A stretch of 64,000 nucleotides of DNA from Eubacteriales bacterium (GCA_045636385.1 JAZTXK010000048.1:1954-65953); one strand, 5' to 3'; shown: positions 1 through 52,433, numbered from the stretch's first letter. The notes: a model not told the origin generated them from the sequence alone. Translations and numbers: made by a program.

Positions 1-1
1 T

Positions 2-301
2 ATTGCACAGAAACCCGCGGGATTGAATTTTTGCCGCGTGGTTGCGGCAATTTGTCCCGATCATTTATGGGGTTCGCAAATAATTATTTTTTATGACCAA
101 GAATATTATGATTGGTTTTTCACGCGCGGCGACACACCCGACGAGACTTGGACTCCGATAAAGAACGATGCACGTTCATTCGCAAATGAGCGCAACATCA
201 AAACACCGCTTTCGGAACGGGGATATACACACGGATATACCGAAGGGGAAACTTACGCCGAAGACGAGATCTGGTTTTACGGAGAAATACCCGAATCTTG
301 A
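2..301 (+). CDS. hypothetical protein, 5' end outside window
   Basis: The frame is open from the window edge to TGA at 299-301. The listed ORF starts at an internal TTG. No motif I recognise. Confidence 0.3.
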   Translation: MAQKPAGLNFCRVVAAICPDHLWGSQIIIFYDQEYYDWFFTRGDTPDETWTPIKNDARSFANERNIKTPLSERGYTHGYTEGETYAEDEIWFYGEIPES

Positions 302-455
302 TTAAATCTTAGTTAAAAGAACTATTTCCGCGCTAATTTTACGCGCAAACGGCGAATGCAACCGCTGGTTGCGCGAATTCCACCTATTATTGGTTGAAAT
401 CGCGACTGTTTTATGCTATAATTAGGTCGAAATCAAACGAAAGGTGATCTACCAA

Positions 456-1385
456 ATGGATAAAGTTACTACGCTTGGCGAAAGGATCAATAAATACCGC
501 ACCGCGCGGGGACTTTCACAGCTCGAGCTTTCCGAGCTGCTCGACGTCTCGCGCCAGTCGATCTCGAAGTGGGAGACAGACGTTGCCGTCCCCGAGCTTT
601 CAAAGCTCGTGAAGATGGCAGAAGTTTTCGGAATAAGCCTCGACGAGCTTGTGCTTGGAAAAACATCGGAAGAAACGCAACCGACCGCCACTCCCGAACC
701 CACTCCCGCCGTCCCGATCGCGGAAATACGCGAGCGTAGCCGCGTCAAGCTCGGATTCGGTTTTACCTTCCTCGGTGTCGGAATTCTGCTTTCATTCCTC
801 ATTTTACTTCTTGCGGGCGACTTTCTCGCCGCGCTCATTCTCTTCGTTCCCTTCGGCGTTTCGGCGTTTTTCTGCCTCAAGCAGTTCCGCCGCGCCGCAC
901 TTTGGTGCGTTGAGGCTTGGTATTGCTGGTTCGCGGCGTATTTCTATTACGGAACGGGCGTGCATTGGAACGCGTGGCTGCCGCGGCTCTTCCACATAGC
1001 CACTCTCGGAATCGATATACAGACGGTTCTCTCCTTCGGCTTCTTCCTTCTGCTCGTTTTCTTCATTTTTATGACGGTTTTCGTGCATCGCAAGGAAGAG
1101 TTCGAATATTCGAAGAAGAAACACGTCGTCCTCGCCGTGGTGACAGCGATTGCGATTCCGTTAAAGCATCTCGTTCTTTGGCTTTCGAGCGCATTTTGGT
1201 TCTACGTTATCGGCAAAGGCGACGGCGAATACTACACCCGCGTGATCTTAATGAATTACCGCGCACTTATCCCAACACTCGAATTCCTCATAGACCTCGC
1301 CTTCACCGTCACCTTCACCGCTTGCCTTGTTCCGACATTTTATTGGATACGCAGATCGGTTAAGGAAAAGCGGACAAAAAACTGA
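456..1385 (+). CDS. XRE-family HTH regulator fused to a multi-pass membrane domain
   Basis: N-terminal HTH_3 signature (RTARGLSQLELSELLDVSRQSISKWE), a Pro/Thr-rich linker, then several hydrophobic helices. ATG 456 has AGGTG about 9 nt upstream; the listed GTG 444 has no RBS. Confidence 0.75.
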   Translation: MDKVTTLGERINKYRTARGLSQLELSELLDVSRQSISKWETDVAVPELSKLVKMAEVFGISLDELVLGKTSEETQPTATPEPTPAVPIAEIRERSRVKLGFGFTFLGVGILLSFLILLLAGDFLAALILFVPFGVSAFFCLKQFRRAALWCVEAWYCWFAAYFYYGTGVHWNAWLPRLFHIATLGIDIQTVLSFGFFLLLVFFIFMTVFVHRKEEFEYSKKKHVVLAVVTAIAIPLKHLVLWLSSAFWFYVIGKGDGEYYTRVILMNYRALIPTLEFLIDLAFTVTFTACLVPTFYWIRRSVKEKRTKN

Positions 1386-4045: not shown

Positions 4046-5449
4046 ATGAAACGAATGTTTTACGCACTTTTGATGGTTTTCATATTATGTATCTTGATTA
4101 CTTCCTGCACGAGCATATACTTTGAATTGCCGGAAGATGACATCAATTCGTCCTTAAATGTCGATACGAATAAAGAATATTTCACCACGGGAGCTGTACT
4201 CTCAAAAGGAAATATTAGTGAAGGCGTTTTTTATAACGGGTATTGGATATACAGAGAAGTACAGGAGTACAGGTACAACTATCTACGCGCTGACGGTAAA
4301 ATCGTGACGTCGTCGCCCACTCAGTTAGCCCGTTTTGTCAAAGTAAACGCCGCAACCGGTGTGGTTTCAAGTCTATGTCTTGATCCTGTATGCAATCATT
4401 CCGTAGGTTCGGGGTGCATAATGATCTGCCCCAAAGGCGGCATTCCGGTTATTCAGGGCTTAGTCGGCGATAACATTCTTTTTACGTACGGAATCCGTGA
4501 TGAAATCTACGGAACTGTAAACCAATCTTACTTATACAATCTGAAAACCGGCGAAGCCAACACTATTTTTGCTCAAAATATGGAAGGGGATATCTTGACG
4601 AAATATTCTTCAAGATATATCTTCGGCGACACTTATTACGTTGTTAAAAATATTCTGGATTTTTCGGAGACCGATTATGATCCTGCAGACCGGGTTCCTC
4701 TCTCGTTCTATACCCCAAAGACAGTCAGCATCCTTTGTGAATACGATTTTAAAAAGAACAATATAAAAGAATTGTTCGAAATCCCCGAGGATTATTCGTT
4801 ATGCATCGTCAGCAGCGAGAGATTTTTCTTCAGTACTCCCGAAAACGAGATATATTCCTGCTATTACAGCGGAAAAAATATGAAGAAAGAAAAGATTCTC
4901 GACTTTTCTCCGGAATATGTGTGCGGAACCTATGCCTATTCTGTCGATTACGAAACTTACAAAATAGTGATATATGACCTGTTAAACAACAAAAAATTCG
5001 CACTTCAAAATGAAGTAAGATCTACTTATTATACGATAACGGACGCGGGCATTATCAAGAACGATCTTTCGGTTCTCGATGAATACCGAAGGATTCAAAG
5101 CAGTTACGATGAACTTAAGGAACAGGGAATAACGCCGACTGCCGCCGATCACGATAAACTCTGCAGAAAGGTCCGCTGCAGCGGAGTAACGCAGATCTGG
5201 AAGTGGAGACACGACGGTAGCAATCCTGAAATGATATTTGAAATTGATAAATCACTGGTAAATATACTTTTTGCAACCGATGATTATCTCTATGGTTTTG
5301 TCTACCGCGCCGATCCCAATAATAATTTCGAAGAAATGCCGTATGAGAATGAAGGCAGAAGCTATATCGACCTCAAAACAGGCGAGATTACGCCGATTCC
5401 CTATCTTGAGTTGATCATTCCCGACCTTGTTGAGCAGCCAGGGAACTAA
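4046..5449 (+). CDS. L-family lipoprotein with C-x4-C-N-H Cys motif (L1)
   Basis: Lipobox ITSC. Conserved blocks SSLCLDPVCNHSVGSGC, YNLKTGE, CEYDF..KELFEIP, GTYAY and DLKTGEITPIP (INxKTGE in the other paralogues) shared with five paralogues in the window. Confidence 0.85.
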   Translation: MKRMFYALLMVFILCILITSCTSIYFELPEDDINSSLNVDTNKEYFTTGAVLSKGNISEGVFYNGYWIYREVQEYRYNYLRADGKIVTSSPTQLARFVKVNAATGVVSSLCLDPVCNHSVGSGCIMICPKGGIPVIQGLVGDNILFTYGIRDEIYGTVNQSYLYNLKTGEANTIFAQNMEGDILTKYSSRYIFGDTYYVVKNILDFSETDYDPADRVPLSFYTPKTVSILCEYDFKKNNIKELFEIPEDYSLCIVSSERFFFSTPENEIYSCYYSGKNMKKEKILDFSPEYVCGTYAYSVDYETYKIVIYDLLNNKKFALQNEVRSTYYTITDAGIIKNDLSVLDEYRRIQSSYDELKEQGITPTAADHDKLCRKVRCSGVTQIWKWRHDGSNPEMIFEIDKSLVNILFATDDYLYGFVYRADPNNNFEEMPYENEGRSYIDLKTGEITPIPYLELIIPDLVEQPGN

Positions 5450-6298: not shown

Positions 6299-7720
6299 AT
6301 GAAAAAAACATCTTTAGTCAGCTTGATCCTTGTGCTGTGTATACTTCTATCCTCCTGCAGTACGGTCTATATCGATCCCGAAAAAGGATCGGATAATGAG
6401 TCCACTCTCATCGATGGAGAATATTTTACCGACGGTTCGTTATATCAAGCAGGAGAAAATCAGTCAGGCTTTTTTTACGAGGGCTGTTGGCTATATATTG
6501 AGATGCAAAAGACGATCGGCCCCTCCGGTTATTATATTCGAGACGGTGAAAAGCATATAATATACGACGACCAAGTGCAGATGAAGCGTATCGTCAAGTA
6601 TAATCCGCACACGGGCACAGTCTCAAGTCCCTGCCTTGATCCCGCTTGCAATCACAGCTTTGAATCGGGATGCCTGATGCTCGCTCCGCTGCCCGAGGGA
6701 CGCCAGAAAGTAACGTTCCATATCCGAACGATAATCGGCGATTGGATGCTGATATTTACCCAATGGACCGATGACGTATACGTTACGTTGAATAAAAATA
6801 TCGCATACAACCTGAAGACCGGCGAGTCGAAGGAGATCTTTGAGGAAGAGCTTGGGGAAAGTGTAATGACGCGCTGGATGGGAACAACTCATTTCGGCCA
6901 TAAATATTATATTGTCAAGCAAACTCTTGATTATTCAAATACGGAATATACGCACGGTACGGGCAATCAAAGCGTGCTTGACTTCGCACCCGAAACAAAG
7001 CAGATGATCTGCGAATACGACTTTGATACCGGTACGATGAAGGAGCTCTTTGAGATCCCCGAGAACTTTTACTTAAGCGACGTAACAAATAAAAGGTTTA
7101 TCTTGCGCGATGATATGAATGAGATGTATTCCTGCAGCTACGATGGAAGCAATATGTCCAAAGAAGAATATCTGGACGCACAGCAGGAAAATATGATAGG
7201 GCACTATGGTTACATATTTACTGATCTTGATGGCTTCATTATGTTTGATCTGAAGACGAATGAGAAAAAGCAGGTGACGGTCGATTATGACGAATACTAC
7301 GGCGCGGGGATCTGTGAGGAGGGAATACTTCTTGACCACGTAAGCGGGTACGAAAAATACAGAGAGCATCTCTCCCTGCGGAAGGAGCTTCCTTCCAAAT
7401 ATGCCCAAGAGTTGAATATCAGCCTTGAAGAAGCACGGGAAAAATATGACGCTGAAAAGAATGAGATATTGTTTGGCGGTACGACAAGGGTATATATGTG
7501 CGACTTCGACGGCGAGAATATGCGCGTGATCTATGAGGAAGAAAATGCCGTTATCCGATCGTGGTATGCGGAGGGAGACTTTTTGTTCGCCGAAAGAAGC
7601 GTTCTTAATGCCGACGGAAAAAAGAAGGTTTCCGATTGTGTTATCAATATGAAAACGGGAGAGATCACCGAGCTTCCCTTGCTCGATATCGTCGTTCCCG
7701 ATTGGTACGTAAACGATTAA
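6299..7720 (+). CDS. L-family lipoprotein (L2)
   Basis: GGAGG RBS, lipobox LSSC, SSPCLDPACNHSFESGC motif, C-terminal LDIVVPDWYVND. Confidence 0.85.
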   Translation: MKKTSLVSLILVLCILLSSCSTVYIDPEKGSDNESTLIDGEYFTDGSLYQAGENQSGFFYEGCWLYIEMQKTIGPSGYYIRDGEKHIIYDDQVQMKRIVKYNPHTGTVSSPCLDPACNHSFESGCLMLAPLPEGRQKVTFHIRTIIGDWMLIFTQWTDDVYVTLNKNIAYNLKTGESKEIFEEELGESVMTRWMGTTHFGHKYYIVKQTLDYSNTEYTHGTGNQSVLDFAPETKQMICEYDFDTGTMKELFEIPENFYLSDVTNKRFILRDDMNEMYSCSYDGSNMSKEEYLDAQQENMIGHYGYIFTDLDGFIMFDLKTNEKKQVTVDYDEYYGAGICEEGILLDHVSGYEKYREHLSLRKELPSKYAQELNISLEEAREKYDAEKNEILFGGTTRVYMCDFDGENMRVIYEEENAVIRSWYAEGDFLFAERSVLNADGKKKVSDCVINMKTGEITELPLLDIVVPDWYVND

Positions 7721-8668: not shown

Positions 8669-10087
8669 ATGAAAAAGCTAATACGGATGATACTATTTAC
8701 AGCAATTATTGCTATTCTATTGTCCTCATGCCAATCAATATATGAAATGCCCGTTGTAACCACCGGTCCCGCAGAAGGATTTGAATTAGCCCCCGACCAG
8801 GAATATTATACTATGGGTTACCCTTATCAAAGTGGAGATATTGCTTACGGAATGCTGTATGAAGGATGTTTAATTTTTATCGAGGAACGTCCGACTATAG
8901 GTCAGGTCGGAGTAAAGACGAACGGCGAAGAAAGCGTCCCTGTATATGGCGAAACAACTGTCAAAAGAGTTGTCAAATACAATCCGGTAACGGGTATTAT
9001 TTCAAGCCCCTGCCTTAATCCGAGCTGCAATCATTCGATCGGCTCAGACTGCCCTATGCTCTTTCCTTATATCGAGGAAGAGAAACACGATCATATATTC
9101 AGAGGAATATTCGGCGATTGGCTTGTAATATGGACGAATATTTATAATGAAGAATTTCGGATGCTCTATGAGGAAACCCTATATAATCTCAAAACGGGAG
9201 AGGTACGGCGCGTTTTCAGTGATGAATTGGGTTCAGAAATATTGGTTCGCTGGAGCGGCGGCTCTTATTATAACGGAAAATATTACAGAGTGAAAAAGAT
9301 TCTGAACTATTCGGGCACCGGTTATAAACCCGGGCAAAAGGGGATGAGTATTAGTAAATACACGCCCTTTACAAGGCAATTTCTTTATGAATATGATTTC
9401 GAAAGCGACACAAGTAAAGAGCTTTTTGAAATACCTACAGGATATAATCTTGGTAAGTTTACTAACAAAAGAATTTATTTTGCTAACGATGTGAGAGATA
9501 CAATCTCCTTTAAAATGGACGGCACGGATAAACGCAGAGAAGAATCCATGGATGGTATGGGTATAAATAATTTGGTTGGTACATATACGATTTACCAAAA
9601 AGACACTGGCAAAATCAATGGCTACATGGTTCACGATCTTAAAACCAAGGAACAAAAAGAAGTGATCTTTGATTTTTCAATGATAGGTTACGTCTGCGCG
9701 ACCGAAAAAGGCATTCTTGCTAATCATCAGACAAAATATGACGAATGGAAGAACTTTTCAGCAAAGGAATACCGCGAGCAGAATCCCGGTGCAACTACAA
9801 AAGAAGTCAATGCCGCAGCAAAAAAGATTTTAGCTGAGGGCACGGCACAGATATGGCAGTGCGGCTATATGGGCGAGGATCCTCACGTGATCTTCGAATT
9901 GAAGCATGCTATGATAAAAACGATCGCAGCACAAGGTGATTACCTTTTTGCCATAGTAAGCCGCTACGACCCCGAAACCGGAGAAGAAATATCAAATGGC
10001 AGATCGGTTATAAATATAAAAACCGGTGAGATCAGCGAGATCCCCTATCTCGATATCGTTGTTCCCGATTGGTACGTTAACGATTAA
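8669..10087 (+). CDS. L-family lipoprotein (L3)
   Basis: GGAGG RBS, lipobox LSSC, SSPCLNPSCNHSIGSDC motif, C-terminal LDIVVPDWYVND. Confidence 0.85.
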   Translation: MKKLIRMILFTAIIAILLSSCQSIYEMPVVTTGPAEGFELAPDQEYYTMGYPYQSGDIAYGMLYEGCLIFIEERPTIGQVGVKTNGEESVPVYGETTVKRVVKYNPVTGIISSPCLNPSCNHSIGSDCPMLFPYIEEEKHDHIFRGIFGDWLVIWTNIYNEEFRMLYEETLYNLKTGEVRRVFSDELGSEILVRWSGGSYYNGKYYRVKKILNYSGTGYKPGQKGMSISKYTPFTRQFLYEYDFESDTSKELFEIPTGYNLGKFTNKRIYFANDVRDTISFKMDGTDKRREESMDGMGINNLVGTYTIYQKDTGKINGYMVHDLKTKEQKEVIFDFSMIGYVCATEKGILANHQTKYDEWKNFSAKEYREQNPGATTKEVNAAAKKILAEGTAQIWQCGYMGEDPHVIFELKHAMIKTIAAQGDYLFAIVSRYDPETGEEISNGRSVINIKTGEISEIPYLDIVVPDWYVND

Positions 10088-10170: not shown

Positions 10171-10252
10171 ATAGGTACAATATTGTTACATTGTTACATT
10201 TTTTACGGCAATGCAGCTGAGGTTGGTAAAATATATTATGAGGCATATTGAT

Positions 10253-11662
10253 ATGAAACGATTTGTTAACCTTATTTTGCTATCCATCGCGCTCTGTATT
10301 TCATTTACTTCCTGCACCGGTATTTATTCGGAGCTTCCCGATGTCGTAACGACGAATACTGTCACTGTCGATCTGAATAAAGAATATTTCACCACCGGTT
10401 CGGTATATGAAAAAGGCAATACGACCGAGGGCGTTTTCCACAACGGGTATTGGATCTACAGAGAGGTACAAGAATATTCATACAATTATAAAAGGCCCGA
10501 CGGTAAGATTGTAACGTCGAGCGGAAACAATATGGTTCGTTTTGTCAAATTAAATACTGCAACCGGGGTATTATCAAGCCTTTGTCTTGATCCCGTGTGC
10601 AATCATTCTATCGGTTCGGGATGCATTATGATATGTCCGTCGGGCGGCACACCGCTGATTCAGGGGTTTGTGGGCGATAATATTCTTTTAACTTACGGAG
10701 TACGTGACGAAATATACGGATATTTAAATCAATCCTACGTATATAATCTCACAACCGGTGAGACGAAAATTATTTTTGCACATAATATGGCAGACAATGT
10801 GCTCACTAAGTATTCATCAAGATATATTTTTGATGATACTTACTATGTTGTAATGGATGTTCTGGATTATTCGAATACCGGATACAACCCTCAGGATCAA
10901 CAACCGTTGTCAAATTACAATCCCGAAACCGTTAGCATACTTTGTGAATATGATTTTAAAAAGGACACCCTTAAAGAATTGTTTGAAATTCCCGTCGGGT
11001 ATTCGTTGTGCATTGTCAGCAACAAGCGCTTTTTCTTTTCAAGTACCGAAATGGATATGTATTCTTGCGATCGCAACGGTGAAAATATGAAAAAAGAAAA
11101 AGTGCTCGATTTTTCTCCGCAATTTTTATGTGGGACCTACGCTTATAATATTGATTATGAAACGTATGAAATCGAGATCTACGATCTGAATACAAATGAA
11201 AAGCATACGCTGAAAAATGAAATCAGTTCGACATATTGCACGATTGCAGAATCGGGTATCATCAAGAATGATCTGTCTGTTATGGATGAATACAAGGATG
11301 TCAAAGCAAACGGTTTTAAAGAGCTTGAAAAACAATATCCGGATCTCCATAGAAATGAAATAACCAAAATGTACGATACACTCTGCCGAAAGGTGCGCTG
11401 CAGCGGAACAACACAGATTTGGAAATGGGATCTCAACGGAAGCAACCCGCAAATGTTATTTGAATTTGATAAAGCATTGGCAAAGATAATCTTTGCTACC
11501 GATGATCACCTTTACGGCTTCGTATACCGCGCCGACCCGAACAACAATTATGAAGAAGCGCCGTACGAAAACGAAGGAAGAAGCTACATCAACCTCAAAA
11601 CCGGAGAAATAACGCCGATCCCATATCTGGAACTTATTATTCCCGAACTTGTTGAACAGTAA
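10253..11662 (+). CDS. L-family lipoprotein (L4, closest to L1)
   Basis: ATG 10253 has GAGG 7 nt upstream and gives the lipoprotein signal MKRFVNLILLSIALCISFTSC. The listed start 10211 adds 14 residues that do not look like signal peptide. Motif SSLCLDPVCNHSIGSGC. Confidence 0.8.
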   Translation: MKRFVNLILLSIALCISFTSCTGIYSELPDVVTTNTVTVDLNKEYFTTGSVYEKGNTTEGVFHNGYWIYREVQEYSYNYKRPDGKIVTSSGNNMVRFVKLNTATGVLSSLCLDPVCNHSIGSGCIMICPSGGTPLIQGFVGDNILLTYGVRDEIYGYLNQSYVYNLTTGETKIIFAHNMADNVLTKYSSRYIFDDTYYVVMDVLDYSNTGYNPQDQQPLSNYNPETVSILCEYDFKKDTLKELFEIPVGYSLCIVSNKRFFFSSTEMDMYSCDRNGENMKKEKVLDFSPQFLCGTYAYNIDYETYEIEIYDLNTNEKHTLKNEISSTYCTIAESGIIKNDLSVMDEYKDVKANGFKELEKQYPDLHRNEITKMYDTLCRKVRCSGTTQIWKWDLNGSNPQMLFEFDKALAKIIFATDDHLYGFVYRADPNNNYEEAPYENEGRSYINLKTGEITPIPYLELIIPELVEQ

Positions 11663-34159: not shown

Positions 34160-35563
34160 TTAATTCACGTACCAATAAGGAACGACGATATCGAACTGCG
34201 GAATTGGCGTTACCTCTCCGGTGGCGATATTGATGCAGCAGGGTTGACTGTCGTAACCTTCCAAATGCTCTCCGGTTTCGGGGTTGTATCTGCTGACTGT
34301 TGCAAAAACGTAATCGCCGTATGCGGAGATGATCTCCATATACGCCGCGGGGAGCTCGAAGATAACGTGATTATCCTCGCCCAAATAGCCGCATTGCCAT
34401 ATCTGCGCCGCGCCGGATGCCAATATCTTTCTGACCTCTCTGTTTACCTCTTCCGTGGTTGCATTAGGATTATTTTCTCTGTACTTGCTTGCCGAGAACG
34501 CCTTTCTTTCTTTATGCTTCGTTTGATATGTCGTCAGTATACCTTTTTCTGTTACACATACTGGATTTACCAACGAATAATCAAATATTACTTCTTTTAC
34601 CTCATCGGACTTCAAATCGTTAATGAGATACCCGTCGCTTATATAATTGATAGTATAAGTACCTACAAGATTACTTGTTCGTATTTCCGGCTCCGACCGT
34701 TGATCTGTTCCGTTTTTAGTTAATGAAACAATTTCCCCGGTATCCATACGGAAATAAAATCTTTTATTTGAAACTCTGCTGAGCGACCAGTTCTCTCCTA
34801 TTTCAAAAAGCTCTTTGGACGTATCTGCTTCAAAATCGTATTCATATAAAAAATGTCTTGTTTTCGGCTCATAATCTGTAACAGATTGTCCTATTCCGGA
34901 TTTGTATCCTGTATTGCTGTAATCCAAAACACTTTTCACCTTATAATACTTGCCGTCAAATGACATTCCGGCAGTCCATCTTTCAAGGATCTCTTGACCA
35001 AGATTATCTTCAAAAACAGTTCTCTTCTCTCCGGTTTTTAAATTATACATAATTTCGGTATTAATCACACCGTACTCATCGTCCAGTGCTTGTATAAGGT
35101 AAACGATCCAATCTCCGAATATACCTTTAAACTTATAATACTCATGCGACCGTAATCCATATCCCAAAAGCATCGGACAACCCGATTCAAGAGAATGATT
35201 ACATGACGGGTCAAGACAAGGACTCGAAACCGTCCCTGTAACAGGATTGTACTTGACTATTCTGCTGACTTCAACATCACCGTATTTAGCGATTTTTTCA
35301 CCAGCGGGGCTTGTTTTGTAGCCGATGATTCCCGTAGTAGTATAGGTTTCAATGTAAATCAGACACCCTTCGTATAATGTACCGGAATAAAAATCTCCCG
35401 TATGATAAGGCATTCCGATAGTATAGTACTCTTCTTCTAAATCTATTTCAGGATTCGCGGTAGTTTCCGAGGGAACAATCGGAACATCGTAAACCGATTG
35501 GCAGGAGGAGAAAAGGAATAGAATCGCTAACAGAAGACTTGCGAGTTTTATTGTGTTTTTCAT
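34160..35563 (-). CDS. L-family lipoprotein (L6)
   Basis: Lipobox FSSC, SSPCLDPSCNHSLESGC, YNLKTGE, YEYDFEADTSKELFEI, INIATGEVTPIP, C-terminal DIVVPYWYVN. Confidence 0.85.
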   Translation of the reverse strand: MKNTIKLASLLLAILFLFSSCQSVYDVPIVPSETTANPEIDLEEEYYTIGMPYHTGDFYSGTLYEGCLIYIETYTTTGIIGYKTSPAGEKIAKYGDVEVSRIVKYNPVTGTVSSPCLDPSCNHSLESGCPMLLGYGLRSHEYYKFKGIFGDWIVYLIQALDDEYGVINTEIMYNLKTGEKRTVFEDNLGQEILERWTAGMSFDGKYYKVKSVLDYSNTGYKSGIGQSVTDYEPKTRHFLYEYDFEADTSKELFEIGENWSLSRVSNKRFYFRMDTGEIVSLTKNGTDQRSEPEIRTSNLVGTYTINYISDGYLINDLKSDEVKEVIFDYSLVNPVCVTEKGILTTYQTKHKERKAFSASKYRENNPNATTEEVNREVRKILASGAAQIWQCGYLGEDNHVIFELPAAYMEIISAYGDYVFATVSRYNPETGEHLEGYDSQPCCINIATGEVTPIPQFDIVVPYWYVN

Positions 35564-35723: not shown

Positions 35724-36392
35724 TTATTTTTTCGCTATTCCGTCAAGTATCAGATATAATTCATCCTTTTCAATTTCCACACTAATTTTCAATAAATAAG
35801 AATACTTTTCATCACACCAAACATAATAATTATATTTATCAATCGTTTGACAATAAAGAATAATATCTTCACATTCAACAGCCGAATAGCTTCCGGATTC
35901 CGAATCCAATGTAAATTGCATTGTAGACAATACATCCTGCTCAAATACTATAATATCTCCATAAGCATTTTTCCATTTATTTTGATTCCATATTGAAGAT
36001 TCGTTATTCTCAAACGCTTCATACCCTTCAGGTACATATGTAAGCGTATAATACTCTTCAATATTATCTCCCTTTTCCTCATCGTTGCTAACAAAATAAC
36101 CTTTGATATAAGTGTCATACGTGTTTACAAAGAAATTTCCGATTTGTTCTCTGTATACGACAGCCACACAGCCGGCAAGGAGTATGGCGGCTGCAATTAG
36201 TATCGCGACAACTGTACGCCTTAACGCTTTGCGCTTCATATTCGGTCTTGTCACCTCAAATCCGAACGTTTCGCTCAACTTGCGGTAATATCCGTCGCTG
36301 CAAATAATATTTTCGCCACAAGCGGTATCCTGATCGATACGAAGAAGCAATCCTTCGCTCACCGCCTGCTTGAACATCTCTTTATTTGTCAT
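35724..36392 (-). CDS. membrane anti-sigma factor candidate with DUF4367-like domain (module 3)
   Basis: One TM helix (VVAILIAAAILLAGCVAVV) and EEYYTLTYVPEGYE. Paralogue of 2045-2731. Starts 2 nt after the sigma gene. Confidence 0.7.
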   Translation of the reverse strand: MTNKEMFKQAVSEGLLLRIDQDTACGENIICSDGYYRKLSETFGFEVTRPNMKRKALRRTVVAILIAAAILLAGCVAVVYREQIGNFFVNTYDTYIKGYFVSNDEEKGDNIEEYYTLTYVPEGYEAFENNESSIWNQNKWKNAYGDIIVFEQDVLSTMQFTLDSESGSYSAVECEDIILYCQTIDKYNYYVWCDEKYSYLLKISVEIEKDELYLILDGIAKK

Positions 36393-46517: not shown

Positions 46518-49238
46518 TTACTTAAAACAGTTTCCAAGCACGGCGGCGAGGTGGTCGTAGGTCGGCTCTGTCAGCTTATATCTCGCGGGGTAGTCGAAAT
46601 TTCCGACGGTTTCGTAATAGCCGCAGGTGATGCTCGCACCGTTCGCCTCGGGGCATATCGAGAAGGAAAAGACCGTCTGATAGTCGTAATAAAGCTCGAC
46701 GTGGTAGGTAAATCCGTAATATCCGCGGCTGCTGACGGGGTTGGTCGCCTCTATCTTCTTTACCGTATCAATTATCGTTTGGAAAAGGACTTTATCCAAC
46801 CACTTATTCAAATATGCCCGCTTCCCCGTCTGCCCATTCGTGACAACGATGCGGTCAACCAGTGAAAGGTCTATCTCGGAAAGATCGAGCTTTTTTATCA
46901 GCTCACGGGACTTGGTATCCTCGATCTCAGTCAGCTTAACGTGACCACTCTCGAGCGTGATCACGTAGATATGGGTCGCGCCGTCCTCGGTCACACCGCG
47001 CAGGCGGAGATTTCCGTCGTCGGTGTAAAGCTTAACACTCATCGGAGCGACCTCGTAGGTATCGTCATAGATGAGCGCCCTTCCGTCCTCGCTGACCATA
47101 TAGCGAAGTGTGAACTTATCGCCGTCAAGTCCGAGGGCAATCTTATTTAGCTCCTGAGCACCGTCGCCGTCGATATCAAAATAGGTTGATTCATAGACCG
47201 AAGGATAATATATGCGCTCCGACACGCCGAAAAGCATATCGTACAACATAGCAAGATACAGATTTTTCTGCGGAGTGGCATCGTCCATCGCCACCCAATT
47301 CATCCAATAATCGCCGATATAGCTCGATATCGGATTCTGCCAAGGTACTATGTTAATGTCATTCGGTCCGAGGTTATTTTGAATCAGAATCTGCCGCATC
47401 CCGCTTGCGTCAACGCCCTTGAGATCCCAAAGCTCATCGTCAAGCCAATCACGCTCCTTGGATTCAAGCAGACCGAAGGAAAAGCCTCCCTTACCCATCT
47501 GCCAGACGTAGACGTCGTATTTTTTCGAGGAATCGTATACGAAATCGAGAGAGTTCTTCTTCTCTTCCCTTACCACCTCAAAATCCACCCACGCGCCGTG
47601 GCATTCAAAGCGGTATTTGCCGGGTGTGGATATGTCGTAATGCTCGGTTATATTGTACCCGGACGACGAATTTGAACCGGACAATACAATGCTCTCATTT
47701 TGATCCCATCCGCATTTGTCCTCAAGCTTAACAAGTTCGTCACCCTCATAGTGGAAAACCTCAAAATGGGGGCCGATCACTTGCTCCTTGTCGCTTCCAT
47801 TTATCCAGTTGATTTGGAAAATAATGTCGTCGCCGGCGTCACGCGCGTGCTTGAGCTCGATGTTGACACCCGGCACGTCACAACCGCTGTCACCGATTTG
47901 GACATAAAGCTCATGATTCCACTCTAAAACCCGCCCGGAAAGCACCGGGTTTCCATACTCATCAAGAAGCCATTCGGCATCCGTCTTCTCAAAGACAAGC
48001 TCGCCATCCATAAGTCCGAGCTTGTCCACATCGACCTCGAGAACAAGATCGCCGCGCCTCATTTTGAACTTGCCTGAAAGCAGCAGATCTGTATCGGTTA
48101 TCTCAATGTCATAGAGAGGGTCCTTGTATATCTCGGCGACCGCGTTATTTCCCGCCTCCCGCCAATAAATGGTAATAACATAGCTTTTAGCGTCCTGCGA
48201 CAGATACCCCTTTATACTGTAATCATCGTCGACGTAAAAGGACACAAGCACATCGTCGAGGCATACCCATTCGGTTCCCGGCTCAAGCATCTCCTTCACT
48301 TTAGTACGAGGATTCGTTAAGAAGCAGACCGAAAGGACGAGCGTTGCAACGAACGCGACAACAATTATCCAAAACGCAGGCTTTTTATAATTCAGTACCA
48401 TTTTTATTCTCTCCTTTACTCCAACCTCGCCAAACGCAAGCGGGCAAGCCATTATCCGTCTGCGGTGCAGGCTGCATGCGAGAAGTGCCTCGGAATAGCT
48501 CTTTTTCGCGTCGGCGGGCATCTCTTTAATAACCTTTTCGTCGCACGCCGCTTCGATATCGCGGCAAAGAAGCGCGTAAGCCGCCCACAAAAGCGGGTTG
48601 AACCAGTAAAACGCGAGAAGTGCGAATCCCACCGGCTTCCAGAGGTGGTCGCCGCGGCGGAGGTGCGCCTTTTCGTGGGCGAGGACGTGATCAAGTGCTT
48701 CGCCGCGCATTCCCGACGGAACGTAAACGCGCGGGCGGAATACTCCGAGTATAAATGGCGAATCGACGTCGTCGCAGAAATAAACCTTATTCTCGCCCTT
48801 GACCGACACGCGAACCTTGACGCGGAGCGAAATATAGGAAACGATTCCGTAGCCGAGCATCAGAGCGATGCCGATCACCCAGACCCACGAGGCTGCCGCG
48901 ATGACAATCTGCATCGGATTGACACTTGCGCCGACCTCGGGCGCGAGGGTGGTCGAAATTATCGGATTTATCGCATCATTCAGCACGCCGACGCCGCTGT
49001 TTATCGCGGGCGCGGGCGACATTGTGATATTCTGCGGCAGAGGTTCCGCCGACGGCACGAGGCTGAATATGCTTTCAAGCGAAAACGGGAAAACGAGCCG
49101 CAAGCCGACGATGCCCCAGAGAAGGCAGTTTATCCATTTCGGCGCCTTCTTCATCAGCGGGCGGCAGATGAGTATGGCAAGCACGAGCCAACCCGCGGTC
49201 ACGCCGAGGTTGAAAATTTTAATGAAAAGGTCGTTCAT
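46518..49238 (-). CDS. BlaR1/MecR1-type M56 peptidase signal transducer with ~600-aa C-terminal ectodomain
   Basis: N-terminal TM helices and the zinc motif LAHEKAHLRRGDHLWK. The long C-terminal region has no motif I recognise. 2 nt downstream of blaI. Confidence 0.8.
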   Translation of the reverse strand: MNDLFIKIFNLGVTAGWLVLAILICRPLMKKAPKWINCLLWGIVGLRLVFPFSLESIFSLVPSAEPLPQNITMSPAPAINSGVGVLNDAINPIISTTLAPEVGASVNPMQIVIAAASWVWVIGIALMLGYGIVSYISLRVKVRVSVKGENKVYFCDDVDSPFILGVFRPRVYVPSGMRGEALDHVLAHEKAHLRRGDHLWKPVGFALLAFYWFNPLLWAAYALLCRDIEAACDEKVIKEMPADAKKSYSEALLACSLHRRRIMACPLAFGEVGVKERIKMVLNYKKPAFWIIVVAFVATLVLSVCFLTNPRTKVKEMLEPGTEWVCLDDVLVSFYVDDDYSIKGYLSQDAKSYVITIYWREAGNNAVAEIYKDPLYDIEITDTDLLLSGKFKMRRGDLVLEVDVDKLGLMDGELVFEKTDAEWLLDEYGNPVLSGRVLEWNHELYVQIGDSGCDVPGVNIELKHARDAGDDIIFQINWINGSDKEQVIGPHFEVFHYEGDELVKLEDKCGWDQNESIVLSGSNSSSGYNITEHYDISTPGKYRFECHGAWVDFEVVREEKKNSLDFVYDSSKKYDVYVWQMGKGGFSFGLLESKERDWLDDELWDLKGVDASGMRQILIQNNLGPNDINIVPWQNPISSYIGDYWMNWVAMDDATPQKNLYLAMLYDMLFGVSERIYYPSVYESTYFDIDGDGAQELNKIALGLDGDKFTLRYMVSEDGRALIYDDTYEVAPMSVKLYTDDGNLRLRGVTEDGATHIYVITLESGHVKLTEIEDTKSRELIKKLDLSEIDLSLVDRIVVTNGQTGKRAYLNKWLDKVLFQTIIDTVKKIEATNPVSSRGYYGFTYHVELYYDYQTVFSFSICPEANGASITCGYYETVGNFDYPARYKLTEPTYDHLAAVLGNCFK

Positions 49239-49674: not shown

Positions 49675-49693
49675 GGGTTTTTGAAAATATTCT

Positions 49694-49725
49694 CAAAAAA
49701 ATTTCGGGGCGCGGATGCGCCCCGA
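49694..49725 (-). terminator. intrinsic terminator downstream of the RyR islet
   Basis: TCGGGGCGC-GGAT-GCGCCCCGA, followed on the minus strand by AAATTTTTTT. Confidence 0.6.
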
Positions 49726-50068
49726 TTTGAATATTATTCCTTATTCATAAAGCCGGCGATGCTGATAAATCCTTTGCTCAAAGCAAAGAAACGATCATTG
49801 TACCGTCGCCGATATTGTATCCATAGCAGCCTTCGAGCATTCCACAGTTTGCTATACGTACAGCAACAGCCCCTTCAACACGTTTATACTACGCGAGGTG
49901 AAACGACATAAGGAAAAGCTTATTTTTCAGCATCCACCCAAGCCGTGAAGCACATGGGCAGATTGCATTGCAAACCGCCCATGCGTTTGCATCGTAATTT
50001 GCTATTTCGTCCTCAGTTGATTTCAGGTTAATTTAATTATTCACCGTATCTATGAAAATTAAACAGCT

Positions 50069-50350
50069 TTAGCTTTTTTCTATTTTATAACCGAGCGCAA
50101 CTATAAGCTTAAGCGTTGCAAATGCAGTTGCGCGGTCATACTCGCGCTCGCTGTCCGGGAGATCGGAATATGGGATCAGACAGGGATGCGTCTTCTTTTC
50201 ATCATTTCGCTCCTCGCCGTAGGTCCAGCCCTCAGCAATCCTGCCCTGCGACCAAACGTCGTGCACCTGCTCCGCGATCTTTTCCGTAAGTTCAAGAAGC
50301 TCCTCCGGAAGCTTTACGTTATCGGTATTAATTGGTTTTGGTGTGTACAT
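50069..50350 (-). CDS. stand-alone RyR-domain protein
   Basis: LLELTEKIAEQVHDVWSQGRIAEGWTYGEERNDEKKTHPCLIPYSDLPDSEREYDRATAFATLKLIVALGYKI closely matches the RyR (PF02026) repeat consensus. ATG 50350 has AAAGG 6 nt upstream; the listed start is GTG 50392. Confidence 0.75.
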   Translation of the reverse strand: MYTPKPINTDNVKLPEELLELTEKIAEQVHDVWSQGRIAEGWTYGEERNDEKKTHPCLIPYSDLPDSEREYDRATAFATLKLIVALGYKIEKS

Positions 50351-50394
50351 TTTCTGCCTTTCATATATGATATTTGATTCTATTATATGCACGC

Positions 50395-52407
50395 TTACGC
50401 ATCCTTGCGCAGATCATCGTCGGTAAGCTTTTTAACCGACACAAGCTTATCGTGAGTTTTAGTAAGATCGTTGCGTGTTTCAGAGTAACAGTACCCTTCG
50501 CTGCGCATATATGCATTCCAGCGCACGTGCTCGAACAGTCCGATCTCAAGCTTTTCCTCATCATTGAGTTCTTCCCAAGCCTTGCCCAAGCCCTTGATGG
50601 GTTGTATGTACTTTCTGTCAACCAGCTTAACACGAAGCGCCTCATGGATAGCCTTGGCAATGGAAGATTTATAATGATAATTATATTTCCAAAATTTCTT
50701 TTCTTCCTTGACTTTATCCTCTGCGGTATTCGCCCAACGGCTATTTACCACTTTGCCTGCCTCAATAAGCTCCGAATTTATAACAGTCTTAACGGAGTAA
50801 AAGCTTTCGAGATCACCGATCATATGTATATTGTAAGCCTGACCTTTGAAATTCTTGATACCGCCCGGATCGCTGTTTTTCGTCAGATCGCCCGGGAAGG
50901 TAACACTCATTTCGCGCGTGATATTGGTATCGTAAACCACAGTCTCTATATCGGGATTCATATTTGGAGCAATCTTACAGTACTCAGAACGTATCCTTAC
51001 GGCAACATCAATATTCTCCTCGTCCTTACCCAGACAAACAAAAATGTACGTTGGGTCACTGACACAATTTAGTTTTTCGTAAAAATCATATCTGCTTACG
51101 TCTACTCCACCGTAGATATTTATATCGTAGTACGCCTCACCCTCTGTTTTATCGCGATTTTTCTCAATAAGCTCCGGGCACTGTGCCTTAAATTTTGCCT
51201 CTATATCCTCATCTTCGTCAAAAACCGTGATCTTTATCTTAAATCCGGGCACCTGACAGTACCAGACGAGAGCCTTAAGCATTTCAATGCCGTATCTTCC
51301 AAGACCTACTATGACTGCTGATATAGTATTATTATTCTGCTTATGGGCGTTATCAAAAAGTCTTATGCCGTTGGCGTAAAGATTGTGATATATCAAAGCC
51401 TGAATATCATTGACCCTGTATATCTGCATTTTCTTATTATCCCAGGCGCTGAGAAGCATCTCGCACTCCATAGTGTCGGAGAAGACATACATAGCGACCT
51501 CGTCATAGTCCCACCTTTTGATAATATGCGTCGCATAATTAATCTTTTCGGTTTCATGTTCGCCCGTAAGATAGAAGGTTATCCTGACTTTACTTTTTTT
51601 CTTCTCTACTTTCTTCCGCTTGGTTTCTTTTACTTTTTTCGGATTTTTCTGCTTAACTTTTTTCTTCGTCGACGATTCTTTGTCTTTTTTCACCTTATCT
51701 TCGGGAAGGAAACGCTTAAAACGTACGCTATCGATATTGGAATTAAAGATAACCGCACCCATTTCGCGAGCCTTATCGAGGAGCTCGTCATCTTTGTCCT
51801 TCTTTTCGCAACCCGTAAAGACTACCAAAGGCTTAAAAAACCACCTTTTGAACGCATTTTTCTCTTTTTCCGACGCATTCTTTAGAATGCTGTCCGCAAG
51901 AATAACCGTCTTCACGTTCAACTCCGAAAAAACTTGCTTTTCACGCCAGAAAAAGAACCCATATTTTAACCCCGGAACAAAATTCTTTATAAATGATATA
52001 ACAAATCCAAATGTCAGAAAGGGAGCAATAAGCTGAATTGCAAGAACAACAAATTCATAAACTTCAAACAGATGAGCATACTGATGATGCATTGTGCCAT
52101 TCGTTCTCACAAGTTTTTCTATCTGATCACTTATGTTTTCATATATATTGTCGCTCATAAACACTCTTATGGCGTTGTTTATGCTGAAAACGATCGATTT
52201 TATCACCTTATATGACTCTGAGGAATACTTTTCCATAAGCGCGGGAAAGCAAAGGAGCGCAGACATCAGTGCACAGCTTCCCATTAACAAATAAATAACC
52301 CTTCTGCGGTGGTTGAACAGGTCTTTACTAATGAAATCTATAATGAGCAATACAATCTCTATTGACATTACCAGCATTGCTAATAAAAAGCATATACACC
52401 AAATCAT
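50395..52407 (-). CDS. membrane protein with Lys-rich linker, Rossmann (GxGxxG) domain and RyR-like C-terminus
   Basis: 670 aa. 3-4 N-terminal TM helices. KVKKDKESSTKKKVKQKNPKKVKETKRKKVEKKKSK linker. AVIVGLGRYGIEMLKAL dinucleotide-fold motif. C-terminal FEHVRWNAYMRSEGYCYSETRNDLTKTHDKLV. GGGAGG RBS. Confidence 0.6.
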   Translation of the reverse strand: MIWCICFLLAMLVMSIEIVLLIIDFISKDLFNHRRRVIYLLMGSCALMSALLCFPALMEKYSSESYKVIKSIVFSINNAIRVFMSDNIYENISDQIEKLVRTNGTMHHQYAHLFEVYEFVVLAIQLIAPFLTFGFVISFIKNFVPGLKYGFFFWREKQVFSELNVKTVILADSILKNASEKEKNAFKRWFFKPLVVFTGCEKKDKDDELLDKAREMGAVIFNSNIDSVRFKRFLPEDKVKKDKESSTKKKVKQKNPKKVKETKRKKVEKKKSKVRITFYLTGEHETEKINYATHIIKRWDYDEVAMYVFSDTMECEMLLSAWDNKKMQIYRVNDIQALIYHNLYANGIRLFDNAHKQNNNTISAVIVGLGRYGIEMLKALVWYCQVPGFKIKITVFDEDEDIEAKFKAQCPELIEKNRDKTEGEAYYDINIYGGVDVSRYDFYEKLNCVSDPTYIFVCLGKDEENIDVAVRIRSEYCKIAPNMNPDIETVVYDTNITREMSVTFPGDLTKNSDPGGIKNFKGQAYNIHMIGDLESFYSVKTVINSELIEAGKVVNSRWANTAEDKVKEEKKFWKYNYHYKSSIAKAIHEALRVKLVDRKYIQPIKGLGKAWEELNDEEKLEIGLFEHVRWNAYMRSEGYCYSETRNDLTKTHDKLVSVKKLTDDDLRKDA

Positions 52408-52433
52408 AAAATGCCTCCCAAAAGGTCAAATGA

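Follow-up and report, generated by a model that had tools for sequence, protein, structure and literature searches.

Outside animal channels, the RyR/Repeat12 domain (PF02026) had no known function until 2026, when two preprints reported that RyR-domain proteins of phages either bind Thoeris signals of the cyclic ADP-ribose (cADPR) type or hydrolyse them (PMC13232231; 10.64898/2026.06.04.730250). RyR domains thereby have a known class of ligands, and the view of an earlier note on the DNA studied here, that no function is established for the prokaryotic and phage homologues, is outdated. In RyDEP (mycobacteriophage DyoEdafos) and RyR-Tad (Pectobacterium phage CB1 gp68), four residues (H75/W78/H100/D117 and H129/W132/H154/D171, respectively) bind 2'/3'cADPR, cADPR and ADP-ribose (ADPR) or cleave them, the binding of 2'/3'cADPR and cADPR being nanomolar; both are soluble, phage-encoded proteins of immune evasion that form homodimers via alpha1 and alpha4 (PMC13232231; 10.64898/2026.06.04.730250). 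Most tested phage RyR homologues keep the dyad residues (H75/D117 in RyDEP) yet only bind the ligand. Here we describe an islet of two chromosomal genes with the same four ligand residues in the genome of a gut member of the Clostridia, a Eubacteriales bacterium (GCA_045636385.1 JAZTXK010000048.1:1954-65953; this 64,000-nt stretch, analysed as a whole, is called 'the window'). One gene codes for a 670-aa membrane protein, called LARGE below, the other for a stand-alone RyR-domain protein. We read the islet as an ADPR-type nucleotide-gated membrane effector with an RyR modulator, reduced to an orphan pair that has no TIR gene; we give this reading a probability of about one half.

Several other systems are relevant to the comparison. 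In animal ryanodine receptors Repeat12 (R12) is a tandem repeat within an endoplasmic reticulum channel of ~5,000 aa whose pore is unrelated; the residues by which R12 binds ATP and dantrolene are those of the tetrad considered below. A ~100-aa stand-alone RyR protein of Bacteroides thetaiotaomicron, the 'putative ryanodine receptor' (3NRT, 4N05, 6UAG), is known as a structure only. Tetrameric cation channels gated by RCK domains, and their rings, include GsuK, MthK, Kch, TrkA/TrkH, CASTOR and Slo2.2; ADP/NAD+ gates GsuK, a channel with dual RCK (PMC3510474). Thoeris systems have membrane effectors as well (type II Macro-TM; types V and VII; type X), and type X, a TIR protein with an ion channel, has been validated experimentally. 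No published Thoeris type, including those in the survey describing type X, lists an RyR or RCK effector, and we found no paper on a prokaryotic joining of RyR and RCK domains in the searched literature.

The C-terminus of LARGE is homologous to the core of the RyR domain. Aligned by hhalign with the RyR family, residues 622-670 matched RyR positions 25-73 (95.2%, E=2.8e-8), in agreement with the earlier note, which saw a likeness to half of an RyR repeat here; a search of PDB profiles with the LARGE family returned RyR domains only (6uhi, 3nrt). PF02026 itself scored 14.5 bits on this region (E=0.04, profile positions 29-67), under the gathering score. The core is without the N-terminal strand and the last helix of the domain, and the protein ends one residue after D669. 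The tetrad H627/W630/H652/D669 was kept in 211, 211, 210 and 199, respectively, of 212 family members, 193 of which end no more than 10 residues after the tetrad Asp; judged from these alignments, truncation of the RyR core is a defining trait of the LARGE family. While the same fold family and ligand residues are present in RyDEP and RyR-Tad, the fused copy in the window differs from them in having no alpha4 and in being carried by a membrane RCK protein, with the other copy as its operon partner. The ligands of RyDEP and RyR-Tad were determined by experiment; those proposed for the window proteins are suggested by residue conservation. The analogy to animal R12 is that of a regulatory module on a cation channel, if LARGE is a channel as proposed here.

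The small protein was taken by the earlier note for an almost consensus RyR domain, and it matched PF02026 over its full length (124.4 bits vs a cut-off of 27.4, E=2.2e-36, profile positions 1-91 of 91). It also matched the B. thetaiotaomicron protein over the full length (E=5e-34) and RyR2 Repeat1 over 88 residues (75 bits); from the former it differs in belonging to a Clostridial sub-clade linked to the LARGE family. Its tetrad is H30, W33, H55 and D72, so that both window proteins have the arrangement H, W(+3), H(+25), D(+42), a spacing equal to that of RyDEP and RyR-Tad. The profile of the LARGE family recognises the RyR protein with E=5e-7. More than 2,159 homologues were found, the best 120 at 73-96% identity, and the ratio of nonsynonymous to synonymous substitutions (dN/dS) was 0.03-0.06 for the RyR gene and 0.09-0.11 for the LARGE gene. 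The phosphate-contacting His (H55) was kept in all RyR genes located upstream of a LARGE gene, while many of those located downstream have Thr instead (alignment A3). This split hints at two functional sub-types of RyR protein, possibly differing in the ligand or in binding versus hydrolysis.

The conserved tetrad could also be that of an enzyme. LARGE would then be a membrane-anchored protein whose Rossmann lobe binds NAD(P) or a related dinucleotide, with H627/D669 forming a RyDEP-like glycosidase dyad acting on cADPR/ADPR-type molecules; the RyR protein would act as another hydrolase or as a sponge, and the system would serve signal clearing or NAD salvage. Both counterparts of the RyDEP dyad are near-invariant, the GxGxxG motif (see below) is invariant, and genes related to NAD or ADPR were seen near some loci (ADP-ribosylglycohydrolase at one; NADAR-DarT1 with CTP_transf_like at another). 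However, the same residues are retained in phage homologues that only bind, so that their conservation is no proof of catalysis; moreover, the cytoplasmic part is closer to regulatory RCK rings than to dehydrogenases, and a conserved membrane module with an invariant inner-helix motif would be left unexplained. We consider an enzymatic role improbable.

No Pfam or NCBIfam model matched LARGE at curated thresholds. It has more than 266 close homologues, and the family comprises 3,395 clusters at 50% identity (E<=1e-3), 1,349 of them at E<=1e-30; members with a named source all came from Clostridia metagenome-assembled genomes, largely of gut and rumen. In the AlphaFold2 model (pLDDT 89, pTM 0.81) a helical membrane module is followed by two Rossmann-type lobes and, at the C-terminus, by further helices with the RyR-like block as the last part (coordinates in Table 1). 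The model has three transmembrane (TM) helices where the earlier note expected three to four, and the Lys-rich linker seen there is disordered (pLDDT ~50). This linker is a lineage-specific insertion: it was present only in the window copy and its two closest relatives (P0002, P0003). The motif VGLGRYG, noted earlier as well, is located at 366-373, and its glycines G368, G370 and G373 were kept in 209-212 of the 212 family members.

A Foldseek search with the cytoplasmic part placed the tandem-RCK rings of TrkA on top (4g65/4j9v, probability 1.0, TMt 0.42), followed by CASTOR (6o7a) and Slo2.2. Identity of LARGE to RCK rings was 8-10%, and while the tandem Rossmann fold and GxGxxG agree with RCK membership, the sequence fails the Pfam threshold (PF02254 or PF22614); the RCK similarity of LARGE is at fold level only. 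With its RyR-type module, LARGE does resemble a membrane protein that senses nucleotides or other ligands, as the earlier note had supposed.

Charge distribution points to an N-out/C-in topology of the membrane module: loops 27-37 (+4) and 133-158 (+3) would be inside and segment 61-106 (-3) outside. Model helices cover residues 2-26, 28-60 and 104-151, and we predict three TM helices, the second and third of which are separated by two short helices on the outer side. Two motifs are conserved here, R81-L-F83-x-x-D86-G-(D/E)-(Y/F) in the outer segment and a near-invariant A-P129-x-L-T-F-G-F...S-F-F-K-N142 in the inner helix. The order TM, outer loop, TM is compatible with the pore loop of RCK-gated channels, and the idea of a channel comes from this RCK context by analogy. 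In contrast to those channels, LARGE has one more TM helix at the N-terminus, and a module of the RyR type is added at the C-terminus. A homology search with the membrane module alone returned nothing.

This architecture suggests the main rival of our reading: LARGE could be a housekeeping RCK-gated cation channel or regulator, of the MthK/GsuK/Kch kind, that adjusts the flow of ions, or the membrane potential, according to how the cell stands in adenine nucleotides or NAD(H), with the RyR protein as an auxiliary sensor and no role in phage defence. The tandem-RCK fold match argues for it, as do matches to Slo-like_RCK/TrkA_N in a sister family described below; gating of GsuK by ADP/NAD+ and binding of ATP to animal Repeat12 are consistent with it, too. 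Against it, LARGE has no signature of K+ selectivity, and no TrkH/KtrB-type gene was found either in the window or among the recurrent neighbours of 82 LARGE loci, the neighbourhoods being highly variable. The earlier note had named a match to a characterised transporter regulator with conserved housekeeping synteny (a TrkA-type protein in a K+ uptake context, for example), or failure of the pair to recur, as grounds for giving up its proposal; we found a likeness of fold only, no adjacent K+ transporter gene, and the pair in other genomes.

Gene partners were counted in 82 non-redundant (species-level) LARGE-centred loci with flanks of 6 kb. A co-directional stand-alone RyR gene was found within this distance in 18 loci, mostly directly upstream or downstream of LARGE; the two genes occur in both orders, and they overlap or are separated by very short gaps. 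TIR-domain proteins were present in 13 loci, all co-directional and 10 within ~100 nt; YbjN-like genes in 12; a double-AAA+/M41 protease in 11 (PADLOC IetA-like, E=2e-48); a CARF-PD-(D/E)xK nuclease in eight (E=8e-29). Some recurrent partner was present in 50 loci, and a TIR, CARF-nuclease or AAA-M41 gene in 29. The TIR partners come from several lineages and have at least five architectures: TIR+LRR_5, TIR+MORN, TIR+HD, short ThsB-like and TIR+TPR/Sel1. Among the arrangements seen were permease, TIR-LRR, LARGE; two YbjN genes, CARF-nuclease, LARGE1, LARGE2, RyR; LARGE, AAA-M41, YbjN; and TIR-MORN, LARGE-like, RyR beside an ADP-ribosylglycohydrolase gene (L097).

LARGE and RyR genes form a real functional module: they are adjacent and co-directional in 18 of the 82 loci, whichever of the two comes first and with varied genes around them, and they adjoin each other in the closest relatives too. 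The partners resemble Thoeris in that a TIR gene next to LARGE follows the same maker-plus-effector logic; they differ in that these TIR proteins are large and multidomain (LRR, MORN, HD, TPR), and that the window copy has none. Operons with TIR proteins of so many architectures, with the CARF-nuclease or with the IetA-like protease are hard to explain by a housekeeping channel. On the other hand, the family is widespread in Clostridia with G+C content (GC) like that of the flanks in most genomes, and a CitMHS/ArsB permease, a neighbour of LARGE in eight loci, would suit such a channel. On balance, we find the housekeeping alternative rather doubtful, while still a serious competitor.

A strict two-gene system was rejected: most LARGE loci have no adjacent RyR gene, and most RyR genes at 57-73% identity have no LARGE gene. 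Close RyR relatives (>=72% identity) had a LARGE-family gene in 4/4 sampled contexts; at 57-73% identity this was so in only a few of 52 loci judged, and several others adjoin a gene of the diverged sister family. The latter codes for membrane proteins of 650-715 aa that combine Slo-like_RCK/TrkA_N with a complete C-terminal RyR domain (L121, L165, L174, L179, L180, L184); each of these genes directly adjoins a stand-alone RyR gene, and one (L180:7161-9113) passes the Pfam thresholds for Slo-like_RCK (29.6 bits vs 24) and for RyR. The recurring rule is a stand-alone RyR gene beside a membrane RCK protein with an RyR module of its own.

The neighbourhoods of LARGE in other genomes have further features. 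A fusion of ~1,160 aa (Clp-like AAA_2, AAA and Peptidase_M41; L050:10105-13596, L095:5303-8821, L081:3709-7197) recurs with YbjN-like, LARGE and RyR genes and may be the core of a larger module. In four loci (L015, L016, L017, L024; e.g. L024:4706-5959) tandem LARGE paralogues and RyR are immediately preceded by the gene of a CARF-PD-(D/E)xK nuclease of the Card1/Can2-like type; within the 6-kb flanks neither a cyclase nor a Cas10 gene was visible. The ADP-ribosylglycohydrolase gene of L097 (PF03747; 5684-6481, minus strand) is convergent with, and located right after, the operon TIR-MORN, LARGE-like, RyR; the locus of a sister strain (L099) has neither this gene nor the TIR part. A 49%-identical LARGE homologue (L094; CBDOLN010000093.1) adjoins an unannotated 101-aa gene, with NADAR-DarT1, CTP_transf_like (nucleotidyltransferase-family), Metallophos, DUF2828 and phage-type integrase genes in the vicinity; these surroundings look like a mobile element with NAD/ADP-ribose-related cargo.

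The history of the islet can be followed in its relatives. The relative at 82% identity (L091) has the order esterase (86% identity), LARGE, RyR, YbjN (PF10722), YbjN-like; the one at 69% identity (L092/L093) has GDPD, esterase, LARGE, RyR. As relatives at 69-82% identity carry the pair at the same chromosomal position behind the same esterase, this position was inherited within the clade, and recent horizontal transfer was rejected; of the acquisition proposed in the earlier note only transfer in the deeper past is left. In comparison with L091, the first YbjN gene was deleted from the window and the second, YbjN-like, decayed; by this comparison the two-gene module of the note, while a recurrent pair, is here a reduced remnant of a larger set, esterase-LARGE-RyR-YbjN-YbjN'. 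Purifying selection acts on LARGE and RyR alike (dN/dS range 0.03-0.11, similar to the esterase), for which reason we rejected decay into pseudogenes for these two; this explanation was accepted for the YbjN remnant. Strong purifying selection, a conserved position in relatives and metabolic neighbours in the window would all fit the housekeeping channel as well.

A short contig of another sample (L089) is identical to the window from mid-terminator through blaI and different upstream; it has an identical BlaI, and its upstream gene ends ...VNDFVNVAQNQ. We rejected this contig as a clean empty insertion site: with a different gene upstream of blaI it represents a variable junction. The identity begins inside the terminator loop (~49713), with the left stem arm on the variable side and the right arm on the conserved blaI side (L089:1-135).

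Variation of this junction between strains, along with an islet richer in AT than its flanks, would fit another account of the RyR gene, namely an anti-Thoeris sponge of the RyR-Tad/RyDEP kind, brought by a mobile element or prophage into an acquired islet and only by chance a neighbour of an unrelated membrane protein. Phage RyR proteins do act as anti-Thoeris sponges or glycosidases, RyR-like PHROG families exist, and RyR relatives are present on IMG/VR contigs. However, RyR is tightly and repeatedly linked to LARGE, and relatives carry the pair on the chromosome in synteny; the window around it was found free of phage and integrase genes, and LARGE had one match in 2.9 million viral contigs (IMG/VR). 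Recognition of the RyR protein by the LARGE profile, moreover, indicates a shared module rather than unrelated neighbours. A search of viral structures in BFVD found nothing, and no LARGE gene was seen at the viral RyR loci examined. A sponge next to LARGE by chance is very improbable.

Homology, gene linkage, architecture, conservation of residues and purifying selection are shown by the data; what the ligand is, whether the membrane module conducts or permeabilises, what the RyR partner does and whether the system serves defence are inferred. How the pair may work can be outlined as follows. LARGE would be located in the cytoplasmic membrane by its three TM helices, with TM2 and TM3 joined on the outside by a conserved acidic loop, and would oligomerise like other RCK-gated channels. 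The ligand in the H627/W630/H652/D669 pocket would contain adenine and is most likely a signal derived from ADP-ribose, for instance an isomer of cADPR; upon its binding the membrane module would open as a channel or disrupt the membrane as a permeabiliser. The RyR protein is most likely a modulator, which would either buffer or hydrolyse the ligand and so set a threshold, or dock on the truncated module, which is without the last (dimerisation) helix. TIR proteins in LARGE operons elsewhere would be the likely makers of the signal, and LARGE a candidate Thoeris-like effector, with type X as a precedent for a TIR protein served by an ion channel. As the window has no TIR gene and the YbjN partners were lost, we regard its copy as an orphan sensor-effector pair, for which the signal may be made elsewhere or consist of metabolic nucleotides. 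One could go further and see in LARGE the first of a novel class of effectors in bacterial immunity, namely a membrane channel with RCK gating that is opened at its RyR/Repeat12 pocket by a TIR-made ADP-ribose-derived signal, with the host RyR protein as built-in sink or subunit; we hold this as possible, and less than probable.

A number of observations weigh against the nucleotide-gated effector. TrkA_N scored only 15.0 bits on residues 365-409 of LARGE, below the Pfam cut-off of 23.8. Modelled separately (pLDDT 78.5), the membrane module gave no significant match in a fold search, the matches to the NavMs pore being weak (probability <=0.21, E>4), and it contains no canonical selectivity filter of the T-V-G-Y-G type. 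No catalogued defence system in PADLOC-DB v2 matched LARGE or the RyR protein, except for a match of LARGE to AbiLii, which was rejected as spurious (E=0.003; it starts in the Lys-rich linker, with 46 profile positions spread over ~200 residues). A recurrent partner was missing from 32 of the 82 LARGE loci and an adjacent RyR gene from most; in the broader RyR sample such a neighbour was present in ~7-12 of 78 loci, the flanks being long enough for a judgement in 52 of these. Genes for TIR, CARF-nuclease or AAA-M41 proteins, or an intact one for YbjN, are absent from the whole 64-kb window; the neighbours, ordinary metabolic genes, include BlaI/BlaR1, GDPD, a SASA-type esterase, a MatE transporter and a nucleoside phosphorylase. 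Finally, the conserved position among relatives, as well as a GC content of the LARGE family equal to that of the flanks in 73 other loci (median -0.9 points), is also expected of a housekeeping gene. With regard to the conflict or defence role suggested earlier, what supports it is association in the 29 loci above, while neither a defence island nor a prophage surrounds the islet in the window.

All features that the earlier note listed for the islet were confirmed where it had placed them. The two genes are co-directional, with gaps (2 nt from a GTG start of the RyR gene, 44 nt from an ATG start) as given in the earlier note. By comparison with homologues, ATG is the true start, since all of them begin MY(T/K)P, the database entry has 93 aa, and AAAGG is located 6 nt upstream; the GTG start would give 107 aa (50069..50392). 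The description of the islet as AT-rich is right for the LARGE gene, with GC of 40.1% (0.47 at third codon positions, GC3) against 52-55% (GC3 0.64-0.70) in the flanking blaI, blaR1, esterase and GDPD genes; it does not extend to the RyR gene (49.3%). The dip is real in comparison with the flanks, and LARGE in the relatives is 9-12 GC points under the esterase as well; on the scale of the 64-kb window it is unexceptional (z=-1.7; rank 52 of 621 2-kb windows), as two further regions are equal to or below the islet in GC and the composition of the window is mosaic.

The ~340 nt 3' of the RyR gene, described earlier as apparently degraded, are indeed degraded coding sequence: the YbjN-like gene, intact in L091, matched here by tblastn in three frame-shifted fragments (E=3e-17), with 72-80% identity by blastn. 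The strong terminator noticed at the same end is a 9-pair hairpin with a T-run, directly followed by the blaI promoter. An Rfam search found nothing.

Table 1. Coordinates of the LARGE-RyR islet and of features within it (positions in the window; residues of LARGE where given)
Feature	Position	Residues	Strand	Remarks
LARGE gene	50395..52407		-	670-aa membrane protein
N-terminal membrane module	51943..52407	1-155	-	TM1, cytoplasmic basic loop, TM2, two short outer helices, long inner helix
First Rossmann/RCK-like lobe	51412..51939	157-332	-	beta-alpha pattern in model; no glycine motif
Lys-rich disordered linker	51583..51714	~232-275	-	pLDDT 49-61
Second Rossmann/RCK-like lobe	50818..51327	361-530	-	GxGxxG residues 368-373 (nt 51289-51306)
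Truncated RyR/Repeat12-type core	50398..50544	622-670	-	tetrad H627, W630, H652, D669
RyR gene	50069..50350 (ATG)		-	93-aa stand-alone RyR-domain protein
YbjN-like pseudogene, frame-shifted remnant	49737..49964		-	tblastn with L091 p156
Intrinsic terminator closing the module	49704..49725		-	9 pairs, 8 of them G-C, then T-run; terminator scan

Elsewhere in the window we saw five paralogous lipoproteins of ~470 aa (4046-5449, 6299-7720, 8669-10087 and 10211-11662 on the plus strand, 34160-35563 on the minus strand), with mutual identity of 31-68%, a lipobox-like LSSC after the signal peptide and no Pfam match; these paralogues fill other AT-rich regions (GC 37-42%). Near them are genes for DUF4367 membrane proteins (2045-2731, 35724-36392) and an HTH_3/CI-repressor-like gene (444-1385). 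The BlaR1-like protein (46518-49238, minus strand, 906 aa) has a Peptidase_M56 match limited to residues 8-281; its C-terminal ~600 aa have no Pfam match and bear no likeness to the usual penicillin-binding sensor domain.

The LARGE family, ~3,400 clusters at 50% identity that have no Pfam model, belongs mostly to gut and rumen Clostridia. If the more far-reaching view of LARGE given above is true, it would be a new effector class in TIR signalling and its TIR operons a new Thoeris type. A host RyR pocket serving as receptor on a membrane effector would explain the origin of the phage sponges: phages would have borrowed the sensor fold of the host for their anti-Thoeris proteins. On the same far-reaching view, the animal axis from cADPR to the ryanodine receptor channel would have its counterpart, and possibly its forerunner, in prokaryotes, and the pair would offer a tractable bacterial model for asking whether cADPR-type ligands act through the Repeat12 pocket of ryanodine receptors. 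Even in a housekeeping role, LARGE would still represent a membrane protein of a new type, regulated by RCK domains and equipped with an additional sensor of nucleotides.

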